Under the pieces are notes generated by a model that saw nothing but the letters and a program-made list of their open reading frames with translations, was not told the DNA's origin and searched no databases. Below are positions 8,981 to 64,000 of a DNA stretch of 64,000 nt, one piece after another. The DNA is taken from IMG/VR virus record IMGVR_UViG_3300025390_000003, positions 64,252-128,251 of that record, one strand, 5' to 3'. This stretch comes from a virus. Taxonomy: Duplodnaviria; Caudoviricetes. How positions within the stretch are numbered: the stretch's first letter is position 1; each line of letters begins with the position of its first letter. Position numbers and translations under genes: made by a program.

Positions 8981-9724
8981 TTATTTTACAAGTGCGGATA
9001 TTATAAATTTCACAAGAATATTATCTTCTTGAATTTCGAACACTGTAATTTTCAAAGAGTTATTAAATTTGACATTAATTTTACTAGTTTTAATTCCACT
9101 GATTAAACGTAAGTGTTCTAGATTTAATGGAACAGCGGGTTCAATAGATTCACCAGTATATTCTTCGTTAATCAGATATGTAATATTATTTGAATTTGGG
9201 GTTTCTCTATCGTTCAATTCCCCATACACAGAACCATTTTTAGTATACAAATAAAATTTATTAGAATCTGTGACTATTGATGCTGCCTTCATTATTTCAT
9301 TAAACTTTCCAACAGTAAGTTCAAATTCGGTATCAAATTGCAACTTATTTATTTTTGTTACGTTCAACGGGCATTTTGGTATATATCCATCTTCTGATAG
9401 GTGATATACGAAATTAAAACTTTTGTTATCATTATAAGTGATATTATTATTTTTTACAGTTAAAGAAATGTCACCAACTTTTTCTATACAACCCAACAGT
9501 CTAATAAATTTGTCAATATCCAACAGATTCAGTTTTAATGGTGTTTCTATATCTATAGCAGTATTTAATTTTGCATATACAATGAAACTTCCATCTTGTG
9601 AAGTGCATATTGTATTAATATCGTCCTTTTCTACATTAAGGACGATATTACTTGCAACCTTACTAATTGGAGATAAAAACTTCTGAACTAATGTTCCTTT
9701 ATCTATAGATATTACGGTATCCAT
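8981..9724 (-). CDS. gp45: Sliding clamp (T4 gp45-like)
   Basis: Length 247 aa, LNLLDIDKFIRLL motif, C-terminal FIISAL, replication-cluster context. Confidence 0.8.
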   Translation of the reverse strand: MDTVISIDKGTLVQKFLSPISKVASNIVLNVEKDDINTICTSQDGSFIVYAKLNTAIDIETPLKLNLLDIDKFIRLLGCIEKVGDISLTVKNNNITYNDNKSFNFVYHLSEDGYIPKCPLNVTKINKLQFDTEFELTVGKFNEIMKAASIVTDSNKFYLYTKNGSVYGELNDRETPNSNNITYLINEEYTGESIEPAVPLNLEHLRLISGIKTSKINVKFNNSLKITVFEIQEDNILVKFIISALVK

Positions 9725-16155: not shown

Positions 16156-19100
16156 TTAATCAGAAAATAAATCAAATAAGTTTGTAGTAGTTTGATTGCA
16201 CACATCAGGCATCATCCAATTCACTCCATCATATAATCTTTCTATTGCTGGTAATATCTGTTTTTCAAACATCTTTTCTTTATCTACAACTAGTTTTGTA
16301 AATTCTTTAGGGTATTCACTAGGATAAGCAATGGCATCTAAACCATATACATTCTTCTTGAGATATACCCATTTAACCTTTTGATTTGAATTTATTCTCT
16401 CGTATTTATCTTCGATTTTTAATAATTTCAAGAGTAAATTATATGCAATTGCTGCTTTTACATGCACTGGTGTTCCTGATTCGAATTTTGTCAGTGTTGA
16501 AGTCTTCGCATATTTTTCATAATTGTTTACTGAAATACGAAACGCCATATCATCCAAACTTAATTGTTTAAAATCATCATACACCTTTATATACACTTCA
16601 TTTGTAGACTTTAATGTTTTCAAAGATAATAAAGTATTCATTATCCGTTTGATAAATTCTTTAACTTCCTTAGATATTGTAGATTTCGCAACTTCAACTC
16701 CAACATATTTAAATTCATCAGTTTTCTTACCTTCTTTATCATTGATGTGTAATATATAACGTTTTTTCATCAAAAATACTCCTGCATCCGCAATAACTTC
16801 TCTTTTAAATACGAATCTTGGATCAGTAGTATGCAATTCTCGTTTTGCCCACACATTAATCTCATCGTTTAATACATTGTCAATCTCATCAATAACAATA
16901 GCCGCATCTTTTGCGATATCACCATTATCTTCTAATAGTTTATAATTTTTAATATCTAGTATTGGTGCAACAGTCAAGTAAATTGAATTATGGACTAATA
17001 TATCATTTGCAAAATATGTTTGTTCCACTGGATTTTCTGTATCCATTTCAAAATCGTATACATATTCATCATCGAAAACATCAAGCTGTTCTACTTTAAA
17101 TTTATCTGTAATTATAGTTTTAAGTATGCTCGTTATATTATCTGATATATACAATATTTTATCACTTTCTGCAATTTCTTTAGGTGATATTCTTGTTAGT
17201 TTATCATTCCTAACAACTACCATATCATGATCTTCCGTTATGACCACACTTTTACCGTCTACCGTAATCTTATATCGTTTCTTGGTTACTTTATGCCGAA
17301 TTATGTGTTTAATTTTACCATAAACTGGTATATTATTTTTATATGTTAAAATTTCTATACCATTAGTATGTTTCATTTCATGTCCAGATGATGTTTTTAG
17401 AATGATATTATCATTATTCTCCCAAAGTTTTTCTATTGTATCCTCACCATTCTTGTGTCGAATTATACTATCAAAAGCTACTGAGTCCGTATCACCGTAC
17501 ACCACAATACTTTTACCTGTCACTCCGTATTTTTCCTTTGCGTGGCGATCTACAATATTTGCAGCCTCTTGTCCAACTGCTCTACCCGTTGCGGTGACTG
17601 ATCTTGCAGCATCAATATCCGCAAAAATACAGTAATTATTCGCAAACGCCCCATATAAAGAATTAAGAAAAATCTTTACAGTATATTGCAAAGTGTCAAG
17701 ATAAATAAGTTCATATTCATCTTCGTCGGTTTTCATTTTTTTCTTATCTATTTTTTTATATTTTGCTTTTGCATCTACTCGTTTTGTATAAAGATCGTCA
17801 ACTAATTTTGGAATGATGCCTTTATTTTTTTGTGAATATATTACATTAGCATTTGATATACACATCTGTTCACTTATCAAAAACTTTTTCAATTTTGATA
17901 TAGAGAGTGTATAAGATTTTCCTGTTACCAATACCAATTCCGCAACATCATCAGGATTATTAAAATCAGGATTGTTTATAAGTTTTCCCACTTTTGTCTC
18001 TGGTGATATGTTTAATGTAATAATGGTGTTTGGGTATAGACTATTAGCATCGAAGCTTACAATGGCTTCCTGGAGTCCTGTAATAGGCTCTCTGACGAAT
18101 CCACCAGGAAGTTCACCATTAAGATTAGGAGGGAATGTCGGAATGGTTAATCCTTCCTTTTTAGCTTGAATTGCAATAGCACCAACAACCAATGTTACTT
18201 TACCCAAAGCACTTTCAAAGTTCGAACAACCTTGGTATGAAAGCAATCTTGCGATTTGAATATATTTTAATTTCTCCTCAAGTTTAACAAGCAATGCAAC
18301 ATCTTGAATATTATACTCAACAAAATTTTTCCAATCTGTGTCTGCTAATGTCGAAAGATTTGTGGCATTTATTTCCAATTTCCCTTCGTTCAATTCTACT
18401 TCTCCAATATAATTTAATTTATACGATTCTCGTTTATCTCTTGCGAAGGTTTTATATAATAACATATAGTCCAATATACTCACGCCTTGGATATGCCATT
18501 TTATAAATTGTTGTCCAAAGTCATTTGTTGCATTAGATGAATATAGTTTTCTGAATGGTGAAAGTCTTTTTGCTGCTGCTTCACCCATAACATTAGTAAT
18601 ACGATTGATTATATATGGAACGTCAAAACCATCACAATTATGGGTTTTTATACCATTACACACAAAATAATGAGTGGACGTTTCAATATCTGCCATTTCT
18701 GTGGGGGTTTCGGTTTTATATATTTTTCTTATTTTTACTAAAATATTATCTTCCTTGATAAAGTATTTAATTTTATCACTAGAATTATTACATTTTTCAA
18801 AAAAACATACCCCTCCATCAATTTTTCTATTTGGGTGTATAATATCAAGACCACGTAGAAAACTTTCATTTTCTAATATAAAAGGTATCCTATTTAATGT
18901 TTTAGTTTTTGTAGATATTACATTATTCCACAATAATAATTGTTGTAAATTTGATAAGTTTTCTTCTATGCTATTACAGACGCCTAACGTTTTTTGGATA
19001 TTAGAAAAACATCCATCGCCATCAACCAAACCTGAATAAAAACTTTTAAATTGTTCATAAGATAGCATCGATATTGGGGTTATTGATATTTTTTTCTTGT

Positions 19101-20718
19101 TGTTTATATCGTAAATAAAAGGCAATAATATCCCAATTTTATTATTAACCGTCAAAGATTTATAATAACAACCATCCTTTACCTTTTGTGGTTTAGATAA
19201 TTTTAATTGTTTATTGAATATTTTATTATATTTGTCAGTATAATATTCTGTGACTTCTTTATAAACACTACTATATGTATTCGAAAATTCTTTAAAATCT
19301 ATACATCCATCAGTAAAAGTAAACCCGATAAATTTTAAAATATCATTATCTATAATCTCGTCTATATCAACATCAAATCCCCCCCCATTAGTTGGGCAAA
19401 ATTTTATTACAGATTCACCAGAAATATATTCTAAAATCATATCATCAGGAATATATTTTTGTAGATTTTTATAATTCCAACCTTTACGTCTCCAAAATTT
19501 GTTGCTGTGCCAATACTCTGGTTTTATTATTTCTTTAACTGGAGTATTCTTTAAATAATTTCTAATTTTTTCAGACTTTATGATAAAATCGAAATATTCA
19601 TAGTTTTTTATATTTTCAAAATTTTCTATTATATATTTTTTATACGTTAAATTTTGGTTGTTGTTTATTCTTTTATTAAGGACTATATAACAATCATCAT
19701 TTAAATCTATATTTTTTAGTTTTGTGTCTTCTATTGTCCGATATAAAGAATTTTGGTTTTTATACAATTCCCTTCCTTTTTTACAAATCGGAAAAATATG
19801 CTCATTTGAGCAAAATATAGTATTGCCAAATTCTGTCTCTATACAATATTCATCTTTGTTTCCTGTATCCTTAAAATCAACAACTTTGTTACTATCTCCA
19901 TTAGCATCAAAAAGTTTGCTCCCCTTCTTTACATCACCAAATTTTATGATCTTATCAGTATTCCAAATATATTGATTCTTAGAAATACAATTCCAACCGA
20001 CGAGAATATCCGGGTGATCTCTTTTCCAATGTTTAATAAATCCGTCTAACAATTCAAATTCTGAATCACACTTATGATAATAGACATTGGATTTTGTGGG
20101 TGTATAATCTTTAACCCCCCAAGTATGATATTCATTAGATATTGAATCATAAACAGTAATCAACAATACTGGAAATTTTGCATCAGAAGGATTTGGAAAT
20201 TCTTGGGTTTGATAACAAGAACTCATGATTCTCGACCATTCCTTGGTTTCCTCGTCCATTACAGTATACGAATCTTTGTCTAGTGTTAATAAATCTCCAA
20301 CACATACAGTAGATATTTCTCCATCATTCCTTTTTACTTCGACTTTATGTTGGTCACTAAAACGGTTACACTTAGTTTCTATGTCTATATAGAAAACCTT
20401 TAATGCAAACTTACTAAAATCCTTATCATCAATCTTATCGTAATATTCATCAATTAGATATTGTTGTTCAACTGGAAGGTTATTAAATATCCGTTCGTTT
20501 GGATTAAATTTAACATACTCTTTTCTCTCATAAGAATTTTTAAAATTTTTACGAAACAATGGTGTTTTAAAAATTGATAGACCGTCTTTAGCATCTTCCC
20601 TTTCAACATATAGATAAGGTTTATAGGGTATTTCTGTATCTATTCTATCTCCATCTGGTGTCCAAGTTCTGAGATACACCAATCCCTCTTTACTGTCGTA
20701 ATAACAATTTCTATACAT
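16156..20718 (-). CDS. gp43: Family B DNA polymerase with two inteins
   Basis: ExoI DIET, ExoII GWN|CDGFD, ExoIII YNIQD, motif A DANSLYP, motif B KIFLNSLYG, motif C YGDTD|S, KKRY. Confidence 0.97.
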   Translation of the reverse strand: MYRNCYYDSKEGLVYLRTWTPDGDRIDTEIPYKPYLYVEREDAKDGLSIFKTPLFRKNFKNSYERKEYVKFNPNERIFNNLPVEQQYLIDEYYDKIDDKDFSKFALKVFYIDIETKCNRFSDQHKVEVKRNDGEISTVCVGDLLTLDKDSYTVMDEETKEWSRIMSSCYQTQEFPNPSDAKFPVLLITVYDSISNEYHTWGVKDYTPTKSNVYYHKCDSEFELLDGFIKHWKRDHPDILVGWNCISKNQYIWNTDKIIKFGDVKKGSKLFDANGDSNKVVDFKDTGNKDEYCIETEFGNTIFCSNEHIFPICKKGRELYKNQNSLYRTIEDTKLKNIDLNDDCYIVLNKRINNNQNLTYKKYIIENFENIKNYEYFDFIIKSEKIRNYLKNTPVKEIIKPEYWHSNKFWRRKGWNYKNLQKYIPDDMILEYISGESVIKFCPTNGGGFDVDIDEIIDNDILKFIGFTFTDGCIDFKEFSNTYSSVYKEVTEYYTDKYNKIFNKQLKLSKPQKVKDGCYYKSLTVNNKIGILLPFIYDINNKKKISITPISMLSYEQFKSFYSGLVDGDGCFSNIQKTLGVCNSIEENLSNLQQLLLWNNVISTKTKTLNRIPFILENESFLRGLDIIHPNRKIDGGVCFFEKCNNSSDKIKYFIKEDNILVKIRKIYKTETPTEMADIETSTHYFVCNGIKTHNCDGFDVPYIINRITNVMGEAAAKRLSPFRKLYSSNATNDFGQQFIKWHIQGVSILDYMLLYKTFARDKRESYKLNYIGEVELNEGKLEINATNLSTLADTDWKNFVEYNIQDVALLVKLEEKLKYIQIARLLSYQGCSNFESALGKVTLVVGAIAIQAKKEGLTIPTFPPNLNGELPGGFVREPITGLQEAIVSFDANSLYPNTIITLNISPETKVGKLINNPDFNNPDDVAELVLVTGKSYTLSISKLKKFLISEQMCISNANVIYSQKNKGIIPKLVDDLYTKRVDAKAKYKKIDKKKMKTDEDEYELIYLDTLQYTVKIFLNSLYGAFANNYCIFADIDAARSVTATGRAVGQEAANIVDRHAKEKYGVTGKSIVVYGDTDSVAFDSIIRHKNGEDTIEKLWENNDNIILKTSSGHEMKHTNGIEILTYKNNIPVYGKIKHIIRHKVTKKRYKITVDGKSVVITEDHDMVVVRNDKLTRISPKEIAESDKILYISDNITSILKTIITDKFKVEQLDVFDDEYVYDFEMDTENPVEQTYFANDILVHNSIYLTVAPILDIKNYKLLEDNGDIAKDAAIVIDEIDNVLNDEINVWAKRELHTTDPRFVFKREVIADAGVFLMKKRYILHINDKEGKKTDEFKYVGVEVAKSTISKEVKEFIKRIMNTLLSLKTLKSTNEVYIKVYDDFKQLSLDDMAFRISVNNYEKYAKTSTLTKFESGTPVHVKAAIAYNLLLKLLKIEDKYERINSNQKVKWVYLKKNVYGLDAIAYPSEYPKEFTKLVVDKEKMFEKQILPAIERLYDGVNWMMPDVCNQTTTNLFDLFSD
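16987..17484 (-). mobile_element. 166-aa cysteine-free mini-intein (Ser1/Ser+1) in PolB motif C
   Basis: YGDTD|SVAFDS...ITEDH...YVYDFE...NDILVHN|SIY; no Cys in the intein. Confidence 0.92.
18637..19989 (-). mobile_element. 451-aa intein with LAGLIDADG endonuclease in PolB ExoII
   Basis: GWN|CISKN...CSNEH...FIGFTFTDG...SGLVDGDG...NGIKTHN|CDGFD. Confidence 0.93.
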
Positions 20719-38635: not shown

Positions 38636-38875
38636 ATGGAAAAGACTTTTAATGAATTAGTAGAAATTGTATTAAATGAAGATTCTACTACTGCAAATAC
38701 TGGTATGGGTAATACTGGTAATCAATTCTCTGGTGATACATATGCACCAAATGATACAAGATTACCTTCTGTAATAGGTATGTCTAAAAGAAAATTTCCT
38801 GAATTAACAATTCTTGGTACCAAAAACAAAAAGAAACATAAATCTAAGGTAAAAAAGAAACATAAAGGAAAATAA
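38636..38875 (+). CDS. Small putative internal head protein
   Basis: MEKTFNELVEIVLNE N-terminus, Lys-rich tail, TTAAATA upstream. Confidence 0.65.
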   Translation: MEKTFNELVEIVLNEDSTTANTGMGNTGNQFSGDTYAPNDTRLPSVIGMSKRKFPELTILGTKNKKKHKSKVKKKHKGK

Positions 38876-45163: not shown

Positions 45164-45625
45164 ATGAAATTTGACAACTTATATAAACGAATTTTCGAAG
45201 CCAATGAAGCCATTCCATCTGATTTTGATGTAGAACCTGCTCCAATCGTTGCAGGGGCTTCTAAGGGCGTTGAGGGAGCTTCTAATGCTGCTTCTGGTGC
45301 TGCTGGTGCAAACTCTTTAATGTCGTATGTAAGCATCGTAGATTCCACTATAGATTCTTTAAACGGAACGACAGAAGATTCTTTACAGAAATTATTGAAA
45401 ATTCTTGATCGCCCATCTACCCCATTTGAAGGTATTGCTGAAGAGATGTGGTCGGAAATCAACAGAGCAGCGGATGCCCTTGCTGGTGTGTCTACTATGT
45501 TGAAGGCTTACGTAAACTTAAATACCGATACTGCAATAACTCCTGAAGTTCCCGCAGTTATGCCAGAAGGAGCACCAGAAGAAAATGGTGAAGAATCTGC
45601 TCCTGAAGTTGCACCAAAAGGTTAA
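45164..45625 (+). CDS. Acidic putative internal head / core protein
   Basis: MKFDNLYKRIFE N-terminus and late promoter. Confidence 0.7.
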   Translation: MKFDNLYKRIFEANEAIPSDFDVEPAPIVAGASKGVEGASNAASGAAGANSLMSYVSIVDSTIDSLNGTTEDSLQKLLKILDRPSTPFEGIAEEMWSEINRAADALAGVSTMLKAYVNLNTDTAITPEVPAVMPEGAPEENGEESAPEVAPKG

Positions 45626-56836: not shown

Positions 56837-58105
56837 TTATGATAAGAATTTTCTATAAAGGTTATCAAATTTACTGATAGATTCTGGTATTTCGGATTTT
56901 GTTTCTCTAGTTGCAAATTCGTTAATATGATCAATAATAATGGATGCAGTATCTTTAATTGCAGATTCGTGTTGTGTGATATGTTCAGGATCGATTTTCC
57001 ATAATGCCATATATTTGTGTGTATGTTCCGCTGGTAAATCAAATTCCCTTAATACTACATTAGCAACTCCTTCTGCTTGTAATTCTTTAACTAGTGAGGA
57101 TAATGATGCTCTATCTTCTTTACTATGCATTAATTCATGAGCAATTTCATGTATCATTGTAGATATATTTTCTTGTAATAATGCAATACTTCCTCCCATG
57201 CTTACTCCTCTAGCTCCTGGGTGACCAACATTACCAATTTCTACTTTAATGTTTTTGGATTTTGCTAAATCTAATAATGCATCAAATATGACTTTGGTTT
57301 TTTCATTGGTATTTTCATCGCTATACCATTTTGGAGTTTCTGGTATTTCCTTTGCTTTTCCCTCGATTGGTTCCGTTTGTGAAATGTCAAATACTGGAAC
57401 TAATTTAAATTTAGCATAGTTTCTTAGATCATTGCTAGTTTGAGGTTGTGGATCAGTATCTTCTAATTCTTCTTTATCTTTTTTCTTGCTGATTGGGATG
57501 TAGATGTATATTCCTTTTTCTCCAGCTTTGAGTCTTCTTCCAAATTCTGTTTCCCACTGTTTTCTGCCTTTGATATGAGTTGCATCAGGCTTTTGCATGA
57601 AAATTAAAATTGTATTATATAAAGAATATTTTCGGAACTTCTTTTTGAAATCCATAAAGTCTTTAACCTCTTTACTTTGTGCAGCTTCAGATACTTTAGA
57701 TTTTAATTCATTAATAAAGTTTGATATTCTTTCGCTAAATCCTACATCGCCATATTCTTCAATTTCTTCTGCTTTTGTAATAATATAATCCAATTTATTA
57801 ATATCATTGAGTGCTTTTTGGAATATTGGAATTTGTTTTTCAAAATCTTCTAAATTATATTTTTCTGTGGATACCCATTTTCTGGTATTTGTTCTATCAA
57901 AATAAAATAGCCCTGATCCTTTTATTAACTCTCTTTTAATAAAGGTTTCGTTATTTCCTTTTGCGACATCAGGATTATCACTAGTTACTACAAATGAATA
58001 TTCATCATTAGGCAAACTTCTTTTCTTAAGAATTAAATTTTCTCCAAATAAAGATGTTTCTTCTTCGTCTAATATTCTACTTAATACATCATCAAATTTA
58101 CTCAT
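56837..58105 (-). CDS. ArdC-like ssDNA-binding domain plus zincin metallopeptidase
   Basis: YSLYNTILI...QKPDAT...W...GEKG...VFDISQT; HEIAHELMH...ELQAE; N-terminal MSKFDDVLSRILDE. Confidence 0.82.
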   Translation of the reverse strand: MSKFDDVLSRILDEEETSLFGENLILKKRSLPNDEYSFVVTSDNPDVAKGNNETFIKRELIKGSGLFYFDRTNTRKWVSTEKYNLEDFEKQIPIFQKALNDINKLDYIITKAEEIEEYGDVGFSERISNFINELKSKVSEAAQSKEVKDFMDFKKKFRKYSLYNTILIFMQKPDATHIKGRKQWETEFGRRLKAGEKGIYIYIPISKKKDKEELEDTDPQPQTSNDLRNYAKFKLVPVFDISQTEPIEGKAKEIPETPKWYSDENTNEKTKVIFDALLDLAKSKNIKVEIGNVGHPGARGVSMGGSIALLQENISTMIHEIAHELMHSKEDRASLSSLVKELQAEGVANVVLREFDLPAEHTHKYMALWKIDPEHITQHESAIKDTASIIIDHINEFATRETKSEIPESISKFDNLYRKFLS

Positions 58106-58508
58106 AATGTGGTGCGTCTTGTATTTGTGATCCTTTTTCGTTTTCTAAATATATAATCAATACACCATCCGTTTCATCAATATAATGATCAAACATTGCT
58201 TGGGCGACATGTTCAGCATTTTTATGATCATGAACTTCAACACTTTCTAATGGGGTAAATTGAGTGTAATACCATCCACCTTCTTCATGCCCACCAAATT
58301 CTCTAGTTTTGTCGTATGCAGTTACAAATAATGGAAAATTTATATTATCGCTATCTTCATCAACTACGTAATCAAGATGTGCCGTGTTTTCAAAATCTTG
58401 TTGTTTTTTATTTGGGTATCCTTGTCCGTGAGGCATACCAGTATCTTCTTTTATAGTAAGAATTTTTTCGTATGCTTCTTGTAGTAAATCAATATCAGTT
58501 TTTTTCAT
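58098..58508 (-). CDS. Acidic hypothetical protein
   Basis: DLLQEAYEKI N-terminus; FGGHEEGGWYY motif; stop overlaps the ArdC-like start. Confidence 0.7.
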   Translation of the reverse strand: MKKTDIDLLQEAYEKILTIKEDTGMPHGQGYPNKKQQDFENTAHLDYVVDEDSDNINFPLFVTAYDKTREFGGHEEGGWYYTQFTPLESVEVHDHKNAEHVAQAMFDHYIDETDGVLIIYLENEKGSQIQDAPHYE

Positions 58509-58514
58509 AATAAA

Positions 58515-59276
58515 TTAATTGTTTAGTGGTTCTTTGTTTTCAGAGTGAAATTCTATGACATCACCATTTAATTTTACACCACCTATTTTGTGGGTGCTAA
58601 GATCGTATGAAGTTAATCCACCACGAAGTTGTTCTTTTAGTTTGTGTTGGATTATTCTTTTTGCTCTAGCTATGTGTGCCTTATCTCCTCCTCTTGGCGA
58701 ACCATCTTTATTAACAGATAATGCATAAGGATCGGATTTTGGTTTTTCTTCTCCAGGAGCAACAATTTCTGCTTTTCCTGTAACTTGTCCCATGATATTA
58801 ATACAATCTTTTTCAGTATTATATCTCATTCCTTTACCGATATTTACATATACACTAGGTTTATCTTCATCAGGATTGAATGGTTTTGTAAGCCCACTTA
58901 ACATTTCAGCTTTTGCGAGTTCTTCCCATTTATCTTCGGGTGTATATGCTTCGATAACTGCTTTGTTATGATCTTTTATGTTTCCGTAATTAATACCTAA
59001 ATTTACTTTATATATTTTAGTTGGTCCGTTTGGTTCTGCGCCCTTTCTAATTTGGTCAGTAGTCATTGTTCCATTAGTTTTGTATATAAATGAAGCAAAT
59101 CTAGCACCTTTCGATAAAAACTCTTTTAATTTATCATATAACTGTTCGTTTTCCGGTTTTTCTTCGGTTGGGAATACGGGTTCATTATTTGTTGGACTGT
59201 GTGTTACTTCAGGAGCATTGGAAGTTATAGGTTCTAAATCTTCCATAACTAATTTAAATAAATCATCAAATTTCAT
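58515..59276 (-). CDS. Hypothetical putative internal protein
   Basis: Start reassigned to MKFDDLFKLVME (59276), 4 nt after TATAAGTA. Confidence 0.7.
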   Translation of the reverse strand: MKFDDLFKLVMEDLEPITSNAPEVTHSPTNNEPVFPTEEKPENEQLYDKLKEFLSKGARFASFIYKTNGTMTTDQIRKGAEPNGPTKIYKVNLGINYGNIKDHNKAVIEAYTPEDKWEELAKAEMLSGLTKPFNPDEDKPSVYVNIGKGMRYNTEKDCINIMGQVTGKAEIVAPGEEKPKSDPYALSVNKDGSPRGGDKAHIARAKRIIQHKLKEQLRGGLTSYDLSTHKIGGVKLNGDVIEFHSENKEPLNN

Positions 59277-59307
59277 AATATACTTATATTTATCTGTATA
59301 TGACAAA

Positions 59308-62253
59308 TTAAATCATTAAAACCCCATCCAAACTAACATCCAATTCGTTACGAGTTGTGAATTTTTTAAATGATGTTATCTTAGCTTCTTTTAAATCTTC
59401 TTTTGGTATAGTAGTTCCCAAGGTTTTTTTAATAGAAGCTTCCATAGATTTATCGATTTCTGCTAATTCTCTTTGTGCTTGAAGTATTTTTTGTAGTTCA
59501 GGAGAATCTTCGCCTTTTTGGTTTTGGAATATTTCTCTATATGTCTGTATTATTTTAGCTAATTCTTTCTTCTTTTCTACTTTATCATACAATTCAGAAT
59601 CCAATCCGGTATTGAGAATGTATATCACTTCAATGTCTTGATTTGTATTAATACGGAAAATACGACCTTCGCTTTGTTCTACTGCTTCAGGTGTCCAATC
59701 ATAATCATTTACTATCATTGTTTTGAACGTATTTGGGAAGGATATACCAGTACCACCCATCTTCATACTCATCACAAGTGCTTTAACATTAGGATTTAAC
59801 GCAGATTCTTTCACCTTATTTCTATCTTTCTTTGATGTAGAACTTAAGAATGTTAATACTTTCCAAGAAGGGTTGATTTTTTCAAGGGTGTTTCTTAATT
59901 TTTCGGTAATTTCTTCTCCAGCTTTTATGAAATTTGTGAATATTAGAACTTTACTTGCTGCATAATCATTTTCTGGTTTGTCTTTATTTTCAAATATTTT
60001 AGCGACAGCAGTTTCCACCGTTTCGTCTGCTTTAAACTTCGCCACAATTTCACGATATGCTATTAATTGTGAAATTGCTAAATCGCTATCTTTATATGAT
60101 TTTAATTTTTCTTTATATTCTTTATTAAACTCTGTCTGTTTATTTGCTATGACACTTTTAATATCCTTATTGATTTCCATATTAGGCATATCTTCTCCCT
60201 TTTGCTGCCTCATGTCTTTTTTAGTGTGCCTGATATATACTCCTGATAAATTTAGCCATTTGTTTAATCTTTCTGCTGCTAATATACGATCATCAAATGT
60301 TCCTTCTACATATGCTCCACCATAACCTTCAGGAACCATACCCGCAAATTCTTTCTTGAATGTTCCTTCTTTAATTCTACCAAGAGGATGCCCCAACATT
60401 GCTAATTGATTCCTTACATCCAATGGTGTATTTGATGATACTGTTGCTGTTGCTCCCCACTTTATAGGTATTGTCGCTGCAACCTTTTCGATATTTTGTG
60501 AACGCTTAGATTTGCTGTGTTTAATCTTGTGTAATTCGTCCAAAATTAAAACACCAAATTTTTCGTTTTCCAATATCTTAACATTAGTTTCTAAACTCTT
60601 TCCTGATGAAAAATTGTCGTAATAAATAACTGTCCATTTCTTAGGATTTGTGGGATCAATAGAAATTTCTTTGCGTTCATCTTCTCCCATAATACTAACA
60701 ATTTCATCCACAAATTGTTTCTGGACGTTTTTTAATGTTACTATTAAGGTTTTTTGGTTTTTCTCTTTCATTAATAATTCCGCAGCATAAATTAATTGCA
60801 CGGTTTTACCACCACCAGTTTCAGAACCAAGAATTGCATATTTTCTATCATATAAGAAACGAACGCCTTCACGTTGCAAGCTGTACAATTCGAAAATACT
60901 ATTTGGAAATTCCTTCTCTATTGCTTCGTCGATTGCTTGTTGTGTTTTTAACTTAATTTGTCTAGGTATAATTGCACTTTCATCACGTTTCTTTAATACA
61001 ATCTTCCTTAAATTGTCAACATCATAGCCGTTTGCTTTTAATATCTGTCCAAATTTTATATATTGGTCATAATCTCCCGCAATCTGATAATCGTATGTTT
61101 GTGCTCTCCATATATAATCAGGGAACATAAATTTTACCGTTTGTTTAACAAATGTTTTATCTTCTGGTGATAATGTTCTCCAACCGACTTTTACAATCAT
61201 TGAATTTCCGCCAATATCCTCAAATTGTAATGAATTGTTTAATGTATCATTTCCTGATGTTACTTCTGTTGCAGGTTGTTTTGCGAAATATTCATCTAAT
61301 TCTGTTGTATCTAATGGTGATAACGCAGGTTTTATTTTTTCGTAATCTTCCTTGTTTGTGCTTAATACATATTCTGAAATTCCATCTGTTCCGTATCCAG
61401 CATAATTCAATATTTTGGGAGTAAATCCCTTATCTTTTAATGAGAAAAATAAACTTTTTGATACTTGAGAATTTTTTCCAAGTTTGATACGTAGTTTTTT
61501 ACCATATACGGTATCTTCTTCCTTAACTATTTCTATCTTTGAATTTGTTGTAGGTTGACTTTCGTTTCCTTCATCGCCAATTTTCACCACTTCTATATTG
61601 GGAAACACTGTCTCTAGTATTTTTGGTATTAAAACGGGATCAACAAAATATGTATCGATATTTCCTTTATCTTGTGAGAATTTTTTGAATCTTGGATATC
61701 CAAAATTTCCATATGAATCTTGTTCTTTTTGTGCGCCTTCTTCTTCAAATTGTGCATCTATAACCTTATTGATCTTCATTTTAGTTGAACGATCAAGGTC
61801 TTTTGGAAATGCCACAGATATTTTACCATAAGATTTTTTAGTATAATCTATTATGATTTTATCTCCTACACCTTCTGGTTTATCATTTAAAACTGGAGAA
61901 TCTTCTCTTTGTTTTGCCCTAATTGTTTCATCAACTTTAGATTTTAGTTGGAAATATTCAGGAAATTGGGTGTTTCTGTATGCTCCCAATACGTTTATCA
62001 TTCGTATTGCAAGCGGAATGGGAATTTCTGGAGTATCTAATTCTCCGTTTCTGATAACATTTGTAGCCCAAGTATAATCACCACCATTAAATCCCCAATC
62101 ATTCTTTTCAACAGGAGCACCACGCCCATGCATATCCATTATTGCTGCTTTTAATTCTTCAATAGCTTCTCCACCAACCATTCCTTGATCTTCTTGGATT
62201 CTATAAATGGAGTTATAAGCATCTAATAATAAGGTTTTTTCTAGTAATGACAT
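59308..62253 (-). CDS. SNF2-family helicase/translocase
   Basis: LYSLQREG, ETGGGKT, DELH, ATAT, KVLIF, GTGISF, WTP...EQSEGRIFR; ATAAATA upstream. Confidence 0.88.
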   Translation of the reverse strand: MSLLEKTLLLDAYNSIYRIQEDQGMVGGEAIEELKAAIMDMHGRGAPVEKNDWGFNGGDYTWATNVIRNGELDTPEIPIPLAIRMINVLGAYRNTQFPEYFQLKSKVDETIRAKQREDSPVLNDKPEGVGDKIIIDYTKKSYGKISVAFPKDLDRSTKMKINKVIDAQFEEEGAQKEQDSYGNFGYPRFKKFSQDKGNIDTYFVDPVLIPKILETVFPNIEVVKIGDEGNESQPTTNSKIEIVKEEDTVYGKKLRIKLGKNSQVSKSLFFSLKDKGFTPKILNYAGYGTDGISEYVLSTNKEDYEKIKPALSPLDTTELDEYFAKQPATEVTSGNDTLNNSLQFEDIGGNSMIVKVGWRTLSPEDKTFVKQTVKFMFPDYIWRAQTYDYQIAGDYDQYIKFGQILKANGYDVDNLRKIVLKKRDESAIIPRQIKLKTQQAIDEAIEKEFPNSIFELYSLQREGVRFLYDRKYAILGSETGGGKTVQLIYAAELLMKEKNQKTLIVTLKNVQKQFVDEIVSIMGEDERKEISIDPTNPKKWTVIYYDNFSSGKSLETNVKILENEKFGVLILDELHKIKHSKSKRSQNIEKVAATIPIKWGATATVSSNTPLDVRNQLAMLGHPLGRIKEGTFKKEFAGMVPEGYGGAYVEGTFDDRILAAERLNKWLNLSGVYIRHTKKDMRQQKGEDMPNMEINKDIKSVIANKQTEFNKEYKEKLKSYKDSDLAISQLIAYREIVAKFKADETVETAVAKIFENKDKPENDYAASKVLIFTNFIKAGEEITEKLRNTLEKINPSWKVLTFLSSTSKKDRNKVKESALNPNVKALVMSMKMGGTGISFPNTFKTMIVNDYDWTPEAVEQSEGRIFRINTNQDIEVIYILNTGLDSELYDKVEKKKELAKIIQTYREIFQNQKGEDSPELQKILQAQRELAEIDKSMEASIKKTLGTTIPKEDLKEAKITSFKKFTTRNELDVSLDGVLMI

Positions 62254-62277
62254 GATATACTTATTTATGTATATCTT

Positions 62278-63048
62278 CTACTCTTTTATGTAGTTTGGTA
62301 AATCGTTCAACTCTTTTGGTAATATTTCACGATTTATCATTTCTTCCATATGAATCAATGCCATAATATTAAACATTGCTTGTCCTGCGTGGTCTTCATC
62401 CTTTTTACCTTCTAAATATTGATCGATATGTCTTTTAGCAGAATCTATTAAACGAGACATATTCATTCCTAATTCCCAATTTCTTGATGAATATTTTAAT
62501 GCACCCTTTTCTAAGACTATTGCTAATCTTCTAGTTGCAATGGGACTAATTAGATCATATCTACCTTTTCCTTCTGAAGTGTCTCTAATTGCACCAGTAG
62601 AAAATTCTTGTCTTTTTCCAGAATCTTTTAAGACAAATGGATCATCCTTAGATTTACTATGTATTTCTTTTTCTTTAGGTTCGTCTTTTCTTGCTTTTAT
62701 ATCTTCAAATTTTAATTCTTTCATATCTGTATAATCATCATTTAATTCATATACGGGGATACTACATTCGATAGCAACTTTAACTTCCAATTTTGCACCC
62801 TTAGATTTTTCCCATCCTTTTAATAACACCACACCATCACTATTCATCACTTCAGGTAAATCTATCTGCATGTAGTGTTTAAACGGCTTCTGTGGGTCTT
62901 TATCAGGGTCAAATCCATCTTTTATATCAAACTCTGCTGGACTAAAAACATCATGCCCTTGTTCTCTGAGTTTCTTTGCAGCTTTATCAAATTCTGGAAA
63001 GTTATAAGATTGATACCCTGCCATTGGACCCGCTAAATAGTATTTCAT
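62278..63048 (-). CDS. DUF4406 (deoxyribosyltransferase-like) fused to DUF5664 (dATP/dGTP diphosphohydrolase-like)
   Basis: YLAGPM...FSPAE...GWEKSKGAKLE; FSTGAIRD..GKGRYDLI...GALKYSSRNWELG...RH...DH. Confidence 0.82.
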   Translation of the reverse strand: MKYYLAGPMAGYQSYNFPEFDKAAKKLREQGHDVFSPAEFDIKDGFDPDKDPQKPFKHYMQIDLPEVMNSDGVVLLKGWEKSKGAKLEVKVAIECSIPVYELNDDYTDMKELKFEDIKARKDEPKEKEIHSKSKDDPFVLKDSGKRQEFSTGAIRDTSEGKGRYDLISPIATRRLAIVLEKGALKYSSRNWELGMNMSRLIDSAKRHIDQYLEGKKDEDHAGQAMFNIMALIHMEEMINREILPKELNDLPNYIKE

Positions 63049-63102: not shown

Positions 63103-63672
63103 TTATAAATCTGCTTTTGTTATTTTTCCTAATAGTTTTCCGTTACTATGCAAATCAGTTACTATATCAGATAATGTTTTATTTTTTAATGTATTATCTT
63201 GCAATTTATAAAACTTCATTCTTGCAGTTCCTTTCTGTAATTTATCTAGTGTGATTCTTTGCACAGGAAATATTGCTGATAATAATCCCCAAATATCTGA
63301 TTTAACATGAAACATTGAAATTTCTACTGTTCCATATAATGATCGAAATACCACATTTTTACAATATTTCATGGTTTCTTCTATATGAATAGGATTTAAT
63401 ACTTCGTTTATTATACTAAAAGCATATTCTCCTGATGATTTCTTTACTAAAATTACTGAAATCGGCTTAACATCTTTCGCTACTCCAAATTCTTCTATTT
63501 CATCTTTAATTGGTATTTTAAATCCGACTATATCACTAATCTGATGTGCCTTTGCTACGAATCTATACCCATGACTCTCAGTGAATTCTCCAATAGATAT
63601 AAAATATACGTGAATCATTTCATGTATTAGAACGGCATCCAAAGCTTGTTCAGAACGTTTTAATATATTAGA
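63103..63672 (-). pseudogene. SprT-like metalloprotease, 3' part separated from its 5' end by an IS
   Basis: SNILKRSEQALDAVLIHEMIH...HGYRF; no ATG before the tnpB-bearing element. Confidence 0.65.
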
Positions 63673-63692: not shown

Positions 63693-64000
63693 TTATCCTT
63701 TTTGTATGGAATGAGGGACTTTAAGCTCCTCACCTTCAAATGTAAAAACTCCATTCGGTTTCCAAAAGAAACCCTTTTTGAGATTCAACCTTCTACTACG
63801 AAATTCCACTCCCAAATCAGGAAACTTACTTCTATGTAATACATTATAAGCACCATTCTGATCTGCATCAGTGGTATACCCACAATTTTTACATTTAAAT
63901 ATTTTCCCTTTTCGATTGGTCTTTCGTACCAAATAGCATTTTGGACACTGTTGAGAGTTATAAGTGGAATCCACGAGAGAAAATAAAACCTTTATTTCCT
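63693..64000 (-). CDS. tnpB: TnpB C-terminal part (second, unrelated IS; runs off the window)
   Basis: YNSQQCPKC...FKCKNCG...DADQNGAYN (Zn finger and RuvC III). Confidence 0.85.
   Translation of the reverse strand, partial: EIKVLFSLVDSTYNSQQCPKCYLVRKTNRKGKIFKCKNCGYTTDADQNGAYNVLHRSKFPDLGVEFRSRRLNLKKGFFWKPNGVFTFEGEELKVPHSIQKG

Follow-up and report, generated by a model that had tools for sequence, protein, structure and literature searches.

What would an SNF2-family ATPase and an ArdC-like metalloprotease, encoded side by side with two small genes in a distant T4-like phage, be doing there, and at which stage of infection would they act? We addressed this question in a 64,000-nt stretch (hereafter the window; positions 64,252 to 128,251 of IMG/VR record IMGVR_UViG_3300025390_000003) of a phage record that is a 128-kb metagenomic fragment, ~61% complete, with a base composition of ~30% G+C. 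The initial annotation described four tightly packed, co-oriented genes at 56837-62253, and this layout was borne out, with all four on the minus strand:

59308..62253, minus strand: SNF2-family ATPase gene, 981 aa, with Pfam, PHROG and PDB matches.
58515..59276, minus strand: ORF2, 253 aa, with its start ATG at 59276.
58098..58508, minus strand: ORF3, 136 aa, a type-2 leader (aa 1-21), a linker and an FGGHEEGGWYY...PHYE core also found at other IMG/VR loci.
56837..58105, minus strand: ArdC-like gene, 422 aa, matching Pfam ArdcN and phrog_7245.

The spacers measure 31 nt between SNF2 and ORF2 and 6 nt between ORF2 and ORF3, and ORF3 overlaps the ArdC-like gene by 8 nt. An upstream TTG was rejected as the start of ORF2 because the orthologues start at the ATG equivalent to 59276. 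We lean towards the reading that the four proteins are leader-loaded cargo of a T4-like head, injected for DNA defence.

Both enzyme assignments proposed at the outset were confirmed. SNF2-rel_dom, Helicase_C and ResIII all exceed their Pfam cut-offs in the SNF2 protein (PF00176, 38.6 bits versus a cut-off of 24.9; PF00271, 42.9 bits), which also matches phrog_62 at 2e-57 and PDB SNF2/Rad54 chains at 5e-10. The ATPase motifs are intact in the translation: GxGKT, DELH and QSEGRIFR (QxxGRxxR type). The N-terminal part of the protein could be described from an AF2 model:

60964..62190, minus strand: N-terminal region of the SNF2 protein (aa 22-430), a helical domain followed by three alpha/beta modules.

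This region occurs only in full-length orthologues. A fold search with its model (m6a3224bab205; pLDDT 75, pTM 0.30) gave nothing above Z 6.2, and the last module resembles the N-domain of T4 UvsW (Z 5.1). No methylase was matched by Pfam in the SNF2 protein or found among the fold matches of the N-terminal model, a list that cannot exclude one.

In the ArdC-like protein, a leader (aa 1-22) and a phage-specific segment (aa 23-125) precede the ArdC-N domain (aa 126-233; PF08401, 29.0 bits versus a cut-off of 22.6), which is also detected in the orthologues, a gluzincin domain (~aa 290-400) and a C-terminal tail. Residues H319, E320, H323, E341 and E345 do not vary across five orthologues and correspond to the HExxH motif and glutamate helix that define gluzincins (PMC7213743). 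The PHROG label is anti-restriction protein, and tblastn returned more than 1000 plasmid records annotated as ArdC-like, LtrC or ImmA/IrrE, to which aa 127-400 align at ~30% identity; the ArdC entry was not among the hits when the family profile was searched against PDB sequences. Plasmid ArdC (R388, pSa) and LtrC-like proteins show the same order, an ArdC-N ssDNA-binding domain and then a gluzincin with HExxH and a glutamate helix, whereas the phage protein has ~125 extra N-terminal residues and a conserved C-terminal tail and comes from a lytic-type T4-like phage.

All four proteins open with an amphipathic leader of 12-22 residues that ends in hydrophobic-x-Glu (h-x-E). The ORF3 leader ends I-K-E (E21), and the other three are as follows:

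62191..62253, minus strand: SNF2 leader (aa 1-21; LLLDAYNSIYRIQE), type 2, ending I-Q-E, from the type-2 HMM and orthologues.
Within ORF2, minus strand: leader (aa 1-12; MKFDDLFKLVME); a low-complexity linker follows, and the domain conserved in homologues starts at ~aa 45.
58040..58105, minus strand: ArdC-like leader (aa 1-22; MSKFDDVLSRIL...), type 1, ending at E22, from the type-1 HMM and alignment.

The initial annotation had likened these N-termini to prohead-targeting leaders, and profile searches agree. When HMMs trained solely on the N-termini of other phages were run against the 139-ORF proteome, ORF2, ArdC-like, ORF3 and SNF2 each ranked in the top three or four of their leader type with an N-terminal match (aa 8-22 of SNF2 for type 2, aa 1-17 of ArdC-like for type 1). 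Motifs this short give only modest scores (8-13 bits). Around ten further proteins of the genome, including the scaffold protein, carry leaders, and most proteins do not; one leader-bearing basic protein of 79 aa copies the mature capsid N-arm (61% identity over 31 aa).

Alignments show a three-part layout of leader, variable linker and conserved body, and the boundary of the variable leader and the conserved body is marked by a conserved Glu with a hydrophobic residue two positions before it. The leaders are modular, with orthologues swapping between two types. In keeping with head targeting, they are absent from distant ORF2 homologues and most ORF3-family members, and the orthologues keep a leader. 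SNF2 orthologues retain one ending h-x-E (in the AF2 model it is a detached helix of low confidence), and the ArdC-like leader is type 1 here and in two relatives (L016/L075) and type 2 in three others (L018/L002/L005), with E22 invariant in five orthologues although the preceding leader changes type. Most of the 16 ORF2 homologues found have a leader, type 1 in most and type 2 in P0011, P0012 and L005; the distant P0015/16 have none. T4 gp21 cuts after L/I-x-E (PMC9026906; PMC3012670), and the leaders here finish in sites of this type. The ORF2 leader ends V-M-E (E12), with V instead of L/I, and the ArdC-like protein has the sites L-D-E and F-G-E22, the latter preceded in this copy by F rather than L/I.

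The phage encodes a T4-type head set (gp20, gp21, gp22 and gp23) together with a gp55-like late sigma factor. The prohead protease is of gp21 type (Peptidase_S77, 1.8e-22), the portal matches Portal_T4 (5.9e-98) and the major capsid protein matches Gp23 (1.8e-89); the gp22-type scaffold scores 26.8 bits for T4_CASP, just below the cut-off of 27, and phrog_237 agrees.

The resemblance noted earlier between two C-termini also proved real, in the form of a tail conserved in SNF2 and ArdC-like orthologues (h-x-E/SFxK(F/Y), the slash marking the candidate cut):

59311..59385, minus strand: SNF2 C-terminal tail after L-K-E (AKITSFKKF...), with the motif in five orthologues.
56840..56881, minus strand: ArdC-like C-terminal tail after I-P-E (SISKFDNLYRKFLS), with V/I-x-E/S-h-x-K-F in six orthologues.

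In the L018 ArdC-like protein the motif is internal, with an extra domain after it. The shared tail could be a partner-binding motif instead of a cleavage site.

Neither ORF2 nor ORF3 matches a Pfam family. The ORF2 model (AF2, pLDDT 74) has no fold match in the PDB, and the only match of the protein is an uncharacterised Caudovirales protein; its gene is found together with the ArdC-like gene in six lineages, and ORF2 is probably a partner of the ArdC-like protein. The ORF3 core occurs at 52 IMG/VR loci, mostly in proteins of 85-140 aa without a leader, and in L020/L021 an ORF3-like core is fused into a 266-aa protein encoded directly after the gp23 gene. ORF3 may be a mobile, leader-tagged accessory.

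Across related phages, the SNF2-ORF2-ArdC core of the block is kept, in this order in at least four lineages, whereas ORF3 is not a steady member, being missing from L016/L073/L075 and located elsewhere in other relatives. The longer order SprT - MazZ-like - SNF2 - ORF2 - ArdC is kept in L016/17, L073 and L075, and L018 retains the SNF2-ArdC pair. Here and in all close relatives, SNF2 and the ArdC-like zincin are encoded separately, each gene having a start and a leader of its own. The block is flanked by nucleotide-metabolism genes with sigma70-like promoters (dUTPase, DUF4406/MazZ-like, SprT-like). Tad5 adjoins the ArdC-like gene in L075, and an Apyc1 gene lies close to the SNF2 gene in L074.

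The late promoter motifs reported for the block are present as a motif of the phage's own, [AT]TAAATA, before SNF2 and ORF2, and not as the canonical T4 TATAAATA, of which the window has no excess (18 found versus 23 expected):

62261..62269, minus strand: late-type motif CATAAATAA, 15 nt 5' of the SNF2 ATG, a gene-proximal k-mer.
59287..59294, minus strand: late-type motif GATAAATA, in the 31-nt SNF2-ORF2 spacer.

A sigma70-like match overlaps the second, so the promoter type is ambiguous there. In this phage the k-mer TAAATAA is enriched 17.5-fold upstream of gene starts. It also distinguishes virion genes (6/10) from DNA-metabolism genes (1/13; p = 0.019). [AT]TAAATA precedes SNF2, ORF2, most other leader genes and virion genes, and also lies 5' of UvsX and some glycosyltransferase genes. 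With just 11-19 nt between motif and ATG, a role in translation start, and not as a promoter, is also conceivable.

Several pieces of evidence suggest that these proteins are packaged into the head via a T4-like targeting leader, a proposal that is well supported in silico: (i) the T4-type head machinery, (ii) the leader profiles, (iii) the orthologues that swap leaders, (iv) the synteny, (v) the late-type motif and (vi) the conserved C-terminal tail. Injection with the DNA, to protect or remodel it, is probable, because each gene starts with a removable-looking tag like the T4 head-loading tag. An anti-defence role is suggested by ArdC homology and by neighbours such as Tad5. We infer each of these steps, packaging, cleavage, injection and anti-defence action, from the genes, and together they would proceed as follows. 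Each protein would be made with an N-terminal leader acting like the T4 capsid targeting sequence (CTS), which would dock it on the gp22/gp21 scaffolding core during prohead assembly. The gp21-type protease would then cut after the Glu of hydrophobic-x-Glu (SNF2 E21, ORF2 E12, ORF3 E21, ArdC-like E22) and may also cut the conserved site before SF near the SNF2 and ArdC-like C-termini. The matured enzymes would stay in the filled head alongside the DNA and pass into the cell together with the genome, where the SNF2 translocase may move along the DNA as it enters and dislodge or block defence enzymes that track DNA, and the ArdC-like protein may bind exposed single-stranded or distorted DNA while its zincin domain cuts DNA-bound host proteins. 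The ArdC of R388 works when it is made in the recipient, and anti-restriction does not require its protease (PMC7213743), so homology does not predict an injected protease.

The nature of the neighbours, DNA and nucleotide metabolism genes including SprT-like proteases, allows another, rather unlikely, explanation: the block is an intracellular module for repair or replication support, and the leaders serve a purpose other than head loading. SNF2 would remodel forks or clear proteins off phage DNA, the ArdC-like protein (ssDNA binding plus zincin) would act on DNA-protein crosslinks like Spartan/SprT, and the tail would tether both to a replisome hub (the sliding clamp). The nearest structural relatives of ArdC are Spartan and IrrE (PMC7213743), the polymerase has a clamp-peptide-like C-terminus (NLFDLFSD), short aromatic motifs likewise make up the SNF2 and ArdC-like tails at or near the C-terminus, and a putative clamp gene lies at 8981-9724 (weak PCNA match, E = 0.07). 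However, the register of the tail motif differs from that of the polymerase tail, and a protease-type h-x-E site always precedes it. This explanation also leaves unaccounted for the same leaders on the scaffold, the capsid N-arm mimic and basic low-complexity proteins, the swapping of leader types that always end h-x-E, and the ORF3-like gene inside the L020 head module.

Head loading could also serve assembly. In T4, core proteins that bear gp21 sites are in many cases assembly factors, cut and then lost (PMC9026906), and the present proteins contain several h-x-E sites, which would fit proteins that handle DNA within the head, organising or condensing the genome, or that are degraded and expelled like core proteins, rather than injected counter-defence. 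We regard this as improbable: in a head packed with DNA and devoid of ATP there is no evident task for an intact ATP-dependent translocase or a metalloprotease, ArdC homologues work on DNA as it enters (PMC7213743, PMC5512222), and known counter-defence genes (Tad5, Apyc1) lie near the block in relatives. That AT-rich codon use and constraints on the start region produced the N-terminal likeness as a side effect, with no targeting role, as the low G+C content, the dominance of Lys, Phe, Asp and Asn codons in many N-termini and the shortness of the motifs might suggest, is very improbable given the specific recognition by other-phage profiles, the scarcity of leaders in the same genome, the clear layout in alignments and the ~15-fold enrichment of a leader pattern, defined post hoc, in the first 35 residues versus internal sequence.

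Read as injected head cargo, the SNF2/ArdC-like block combines known themes: T4 internal proteins and Alt, P1 Dar, polyvalent proteins, and ArdC in huge phages. T4 Alt is an injected enzyme and T4 IPI* is anti-restriction. The likeness to T4 IPI-III and Alt lies in the same gp20/21/22/23 machinery and in a short leader ending hydrophobic-x-Glu on unrelated putative cargo that varies between relatives. In contrast, an SNF2 translocase, an ArdC-like zincin and the two further proteins are not known from T4 heads, and the leaders here come in two types that swap between orthologues and have 12-22 residues rather than 10. Diverse CTS-tagged cargo of T4 heads has been reviewed (PMC9026906, PMC3012670); a CTS of 10 residues is enough to load foreign proteins as large as beta-galactosidase, and Alt is cut at both ends (PMC9026906; PMC3012670). 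The P1 Dar system (the methyltransferase-helicase DarB with DdrB, DarA, Hdf and Ulx) consists of head-packaged proteins that shield injected DNA in cis against type I restriction (PMC5512222, PMC12810830). It resembles the present set in having a large helicase-type enzyme of SF2 and a zincin-domain protein, but neither Pfam nor the fold matches revealed a methyltransferase domain in the SNF2 protein, there is no sequence relationship outside the helicase core, and loading relies on DarA/Hdf in P1 whereas a T4-type leader is proposed here.

The statement in the initial annotation that no system of this composition had been described in T4-like phages was too strong, as Iyer et al. 2017 (PMC5512222) predicted packaged proteins with SNF2, zincin and ArdC-N domains, and CTS-tagged T4 cargo and ArdC in huge phages are also on record. 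Their polyvalent proteins share the SWI2/SNF2 ATPase, ArdC-N and zincin, and the predicted fate of these proteins is to accompany the DNA and be freed by proteolysis. Here, however, the enzymes are encoded by separate genes with their own leaders rather than as one giant polypeptide, and processing would be by the prohead protease, not by a built-in peptidase. We tentatively suggest, with the chances slightly below even, that a ~200-kb T4-like lineage has split the polyvalent-protein toolkit into genes whose enzymes (the SNF2 translocase, ArdC-like and SprT-like DNA-bound proteases, GNAT in relatives and possibly others) are head-loaded via two interchangeable leader types and a cleavable C-terminal tail. 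If true, the virion would bring in a counter-defence kit of several enzymes, an ATP-driven motor among them.

ArdC-N is rare in phage-type polyvalent proteins (PMC5512222), and ArdC has been described in 101 huge phages (2025 preprint, 10.1101/2025.02.27.640493). Separately, one relative of the phage has a gene with an ART-PolyVal domain.

The four co-oriented genes of the block encode an SNF2 protein, ORF2, ORF3 and an ArdC-like protein.

59308-62253, minus strand: SNF2 protein, 981 aa; SNF2-rel_dom, Helicase_C and ResIII above Pfam cut-offs, phrog_62 at 2e-57
from 59276, minus strand: ORF2, starting at the same ATG as in all orthologues; the upstream TTG is not the start
58098-58508, minus strand: ORF3, with an 8-nt overlap with the start of the ArdC-like gene
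56837-58105, minus strand: ArdC-like protein, 422 aa; ArdC-N (aa 126-233) above the Pfam cut-off

Judged from sequence, these four proteins are best explained as cargo that a T4-like phage loads into its head by means of leader tags. Each opens with a short N-terminal leader comparable to the T4 capsid targeting sequence (CTS). Type 1, M-K-F-D-D-h-h... (h, hydrophobic residue), is found in ORF2 and the ArdC-like protein, and type 2, h-L-x-D/E-A-Y-x-x-I..., in ORF3 and the SNF2 protein. A hydrophobic-x-Glu site closes all four leaders: V-M-E12 (ORF2), F-G-E22 (ArdC-like), I-K-E21 (ORF3) and I-Q-E21 (SNF2). In T4, L/I-x-E is the site after which gp21 cleaves, and Alt is cut back at its two ends; foreign proteins, beta-galactosidase included, enter the head when given the first ten IPIII residues (PMC9026906, PMC3012670).

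Using orthologue N-termini from other phages only, we built one HMM per leader type and searched the 139 ORFs (41,312 residues) of this genome. With type 1, the top matches were to a 153-aa protein at 45164, to ORF2, to a protein at genome position 59133 (at an internal Met, its likely start) and to the ArdC-like protein; with type 2, they were to ORF3, to one internal false match and to the SNF2 protein. All four proteins of the block were matched at their N-termini, which upholds the resemblance to targeting and cleavage leaders proposed in the initial annotation.

Leaders are exchanged between types among related phages. The ArdC-like leader is type 1 here and at loci L016, L073 and L075 and type 2 at L018, L002 and L005, and for ORF2 most relatives have type 1, with type 2 in the homologues P0011 and P0012 and at L005; the SNF2 leader is type-2-like in every orthologue. 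In the alignments a variable leader is followed, often through a low-complexity linker of variable length, by a conserved body, and a conserved Glu marks the boundary (in the ArdC-like family, the invariant E22). Distant ORF2 homologues (P0015/16) begin directly with the conserved domain, and ORF3-core proteins, which are widespread and 85-140 aa long, normally have no leader. The leader is thus an add-on of this phage group.

Several head-associated proteins of the genome open with the same leader type, among them the scaffold protein and several Pro/Ala-rich or basic proteins, and at L020/L021 the gene directly following gp23 encodes a leader-bearing protein with an ORF3-like domain. One further leader protein is small:

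38636-38875, plus strand: 79-aa protein with a type-1 leader ending L-N-E and a poly-Lys/His tail

This protein, possibly a capsid N-arm mimic or else an internal DNA-binding protein, is 61% identical past its leader, over 31 aa, to major capsid protein residues 73-103 (pairwise E = 3e-9), the N-arm just past the likely maturation site. At L002 (6436-7350), a GNAT acetyltransferase appears to begin at an internal Met and to bear a type-2 leader there (MRDNDTLILENLY), which hints at additional enzymes among the cargo of this phage group.

The machinery that such cargo would use is encoded in the 128,251-bp virus record (estimated completeness 61%), of which the window is the right half. The genome carries a T4-type head set (gp20 portal, gp21 Peptidase_S77 prohead protease at genome 6932-7606, gp22-type scaffold and gp23 capsid protein), contractile tail sheath and large terminase genes, homologues of UvsX, UvsY, gp32 and gp46/47, and a gene for a gp55-like late sigma factor. 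Searched with the block, the phage collection gave no close relative by megablast and distant helicase and peptidase matches only by tblastn.

The initial annotation placed late promoter motifs at the block. The window shows no enrichment of the canonical T4 late promoter, TATAAATA, but a motif of the phage's own, [AT]TAAATA, does precede two of the genes:

62261-62269, minus strand: late-type motif of SNF2
59287-59294, minus strand: late-type motif of ORF2

Of 139 upstream 40-nt regions, 32 contain the 7-mer TAAATAA (1.8 expected), and [AT]TAAATA lies within 35 nt of the start in 6/10 genes with a supported virion role compared with 1/13 DNA-metabolism genes (Fisher p = 0.019). It is also present at four of the five other leader genes checked. 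No such motif precedes ORF3 or the ArdC-like gene, both of which are packed behind ORF2, and at the flanking dUTPase and DUF4406/MazZ-like genes sigma70-like hexamers take its place. With a gp55 homologue in the genome, this pattern fits late transcription of the block. Late timing is tentative, however, because the motif is only 11-19 nt from the ATG, precedes UvsX too and is overlapped by a sigma70-like match at ORF2. Genome-wide, the distance from the start codon to a late-type motif or a sigma70-like -10 hexamer is within about 10-20 nt, and gene starts show no visible Shine-Dalgarno-like sequence, which raises the possibility that many transcripts are leaderless or almost leaderless.

As the initial annotation noted, the SNF2 and ArdC-like proteins end alike, and this likeness is conserved among their orthologues: SNF2 C-termini read h-x-E followed by S-F-x-(K/R)-(Y/F)-h, and ArdC-like C-termini (V/I)-x-E followed by S-h-x-K-F. 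At L018 the ArdC-like motif is internal, with an extra domain of about 120 aa after it. Since a protease-type site always precedes the motif, the shared tail is possibly a C-terminal propeptide or processing site, by analogy with T4 Alt; alternatively, it could be a partner-binding element such as a clamp-binding peptide.

Three of the four genes make up a conserved core. Genes of the block recur on several contigs of 160-230 kb. The order SprT-like, DUF4406/MazZ-like, SNF2, ORF2, ArdC-like is kept at L016/L017, L073 and L075, but ORF3 is missing from the block at L016, L073 and L075, and in other relatives it is located in a glycosyltransferase island. ORF3 is a mobile accessory and not a core member of the block. 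Elsewhere, SNF2 adjoins the ArdC-like gene (L018), about 2 kb separate ORF2 from the ArdC-like gene (L005), or a leaderless ORF2 homologue and an ArdC-N protein share one contig (L071); at L006-L011, proteins of 813-991 aa have the ArdC-like region as their C-terminal part. Two relatives have known anti-defence genes nearby: a Tad5 Thoeris inhibitor (Pfam 1e-28) directly after the ArdC-like gene at L075 (12977-13579), and an Apyc1-type anti-Pycsar gene 3 kb upstream of SNF2 at L074 (4326-5132). The N-terminus of the Tad5 protein looks leader-like by eye (DFDDIIQE) but was unranked by the type-1 HMM, and we claim no leader for it. In the close relative that bears P0023 (232-kb contig), poly(A) polymerase domains and an ART-PolyVal ADP-ribosyltransferase domain are joined in a 708-aa protein encoded near UvsY; this phage group thus has a polyvalent-type effector domain.

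The SNF2 protein matches solved SNF2/Rad54 chains in the PDB and has intact ATPase motifs (GxGKT, DELH and QSEGRIFR). Its N-terminal 430 residues were modelled as a four-helix domain and three alpha/beta modules (pLDDT 75, pTM 0.30), with no fold match above Z 6.2; in the model, the module adjoining the helicase core resembles the T4 UvsW N-domain (Z 5.1, 67 residues, rmsd 2.6). Tandem ArdC-N/BHD-like modules, considered from weak XPC/TFIIH rows, were rejected (hhalign probability against the ArdC-like family, 0.2%). Because no methyltransferase was detected in the N-terminal region, the protein is not, on present evidence, of the type of P1 DarB.

In the ArdC-like protein, a PHROG anti-restriction match covers aa 149-402, and H319-E320-x-x-H323 and E341/E345 are invariant in five orthologues, a pattern that corresponds to the gluzincin signature described for ArdC (PMC7213743). 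Residues 127-400 match >1000 plasmid genes annotated as ArdC-like, LtrC or ImmA/IrrE; a PDB sequence search with the ArdC-like profile gave no match. Pfam, PHROG and NCBIfam yielded nothing useful for ORF2 and ORF3, and Atlas searches no usable lead. The sole match of ORF2 is an uncharacterised Caudovirales protein. Its model (pLDDT 74) has a detached N-terminal helix, a disordered linker and a mixed alpha/beta domain, with no Foldseek match in the PDB at E <= 0.001; a colicin-like helical fold was discarded, as the best Z of 4.5 in a VIA-wide search is not meaningful. The ORF3 core, Y-x-x-x-R-x-F-G-G-H-E-E-G-G-W-Y-Y ... P-H-Y-E/C (C-terminal), defines a widespread family of small phage proteins seen in 52 IMG/VR loci (among them L022-L070), for which there is no Pfam model.

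The known mechanism that we propose for head loading is the T4 CTS route. The gp21 homologue would process the leader-tagged cargo, which would be delivered with the DNA. The mature proteins would begin at SNF2 D22, ORF2 D13, ORF3 D22 and ArdC-like N23, and those with the SF tail might end at the h-x-E ahead of it. By homology and context, the cargo would probably act on the incoming DNA and on host proteins attacking it: the SNF2 translocase could clear or outrun DNA-tracking enzymes, and the ArdC-like protein could cut proteins bound to DNA and itself bind ssDNA. ArdC of R388 is effective when expressed in the recipient, and its protease is not needed (PMC7213743). The main rival is an intracellular role in repair or replication, with SNF2 working alongside a Spartan-like protease; it fits the neighbourhood of the block but does not fit the leader evidence.

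The block shares its domain set with the polyvalent proteins, for which transfer together with phage and plasmid DNA has been predicted and among which ArdC-N is rare in phages (PMC5512222). Huge phages with ArdC genes were reported in 2025, with no link to packaging (10.1101/2025.02.27.640493). Three features of the present block are new: (i) separate genes, each with an interchangeable leader, in combination; (ii) an SNF2 motor and an ArdC-like zincin as putative cargo; and (iii) a C-terminal site common to the two. We did not find this combination described in the literature.

T4-type head cargo known so far comprises small inhibitors and one ADP-ribosyltransferase. If the proteins are truly packaged, it would extend to a 113-kDa DNA translocase and DNA-dependent proteases, and the polyvalent-protein idea, which comes from comparative genomics, would be tied to a concrete, well-understood loading mechanism. 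Leader type and h-x-E would then provide a sequence rule for listing injected proteins from metagenomic T4-like genomes, turning many 'hypothetical' genes into testable counter-defence candidates, and the leader peptides might be useful for putting foreign proteins into phage heads.

Several other features of the genome were observed. The gp20 portal (genome 3083-5425, L012; 780 aa) contains an intein splicing domain at aa 394-493. Two replication-related genes lie in the window:

16156-20718, minus strand: DNA polymerase, C-terminus NLFDLFSD
8981-9724, minus strand: unannotated 247-aa protein, weak PCNA match (E = 0.07)

The polymerase, at 1520 aa, is much longer than usual, and its tail resembles the clamp-binding tails of the T4 and RB69 polymerases; the 247-aa protein is likely a sliding clamp. 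Adjoining SNF2, here and in four relatives, is a gene (62278-63048, minus strand) in which DUF4406 (nucleoside 2-deoxyribosyltransferase-like) is fused to a dATP/dGTP diphosphohydrolase (MazZ-type) N-domain. This fusion and a glycosyltransferase island of twelve genes hint at modified DNA. The SprT-like gene (63103-63642, minus strand) lacks its N-terminal part, since its alignment to orthologues of 271 aa and 157 aa begins only at residue 98 of these; in the 157-aa orthologue of L016 and L073, a type-1 leader opens the part absent here. A TnpB-type fragment (Cas12f1-like TNB domain; 63693-63998, minus strand) lies directly upstream, at the contig end, and the SprT-like gene may therefore have been truncated by an IS insertion.
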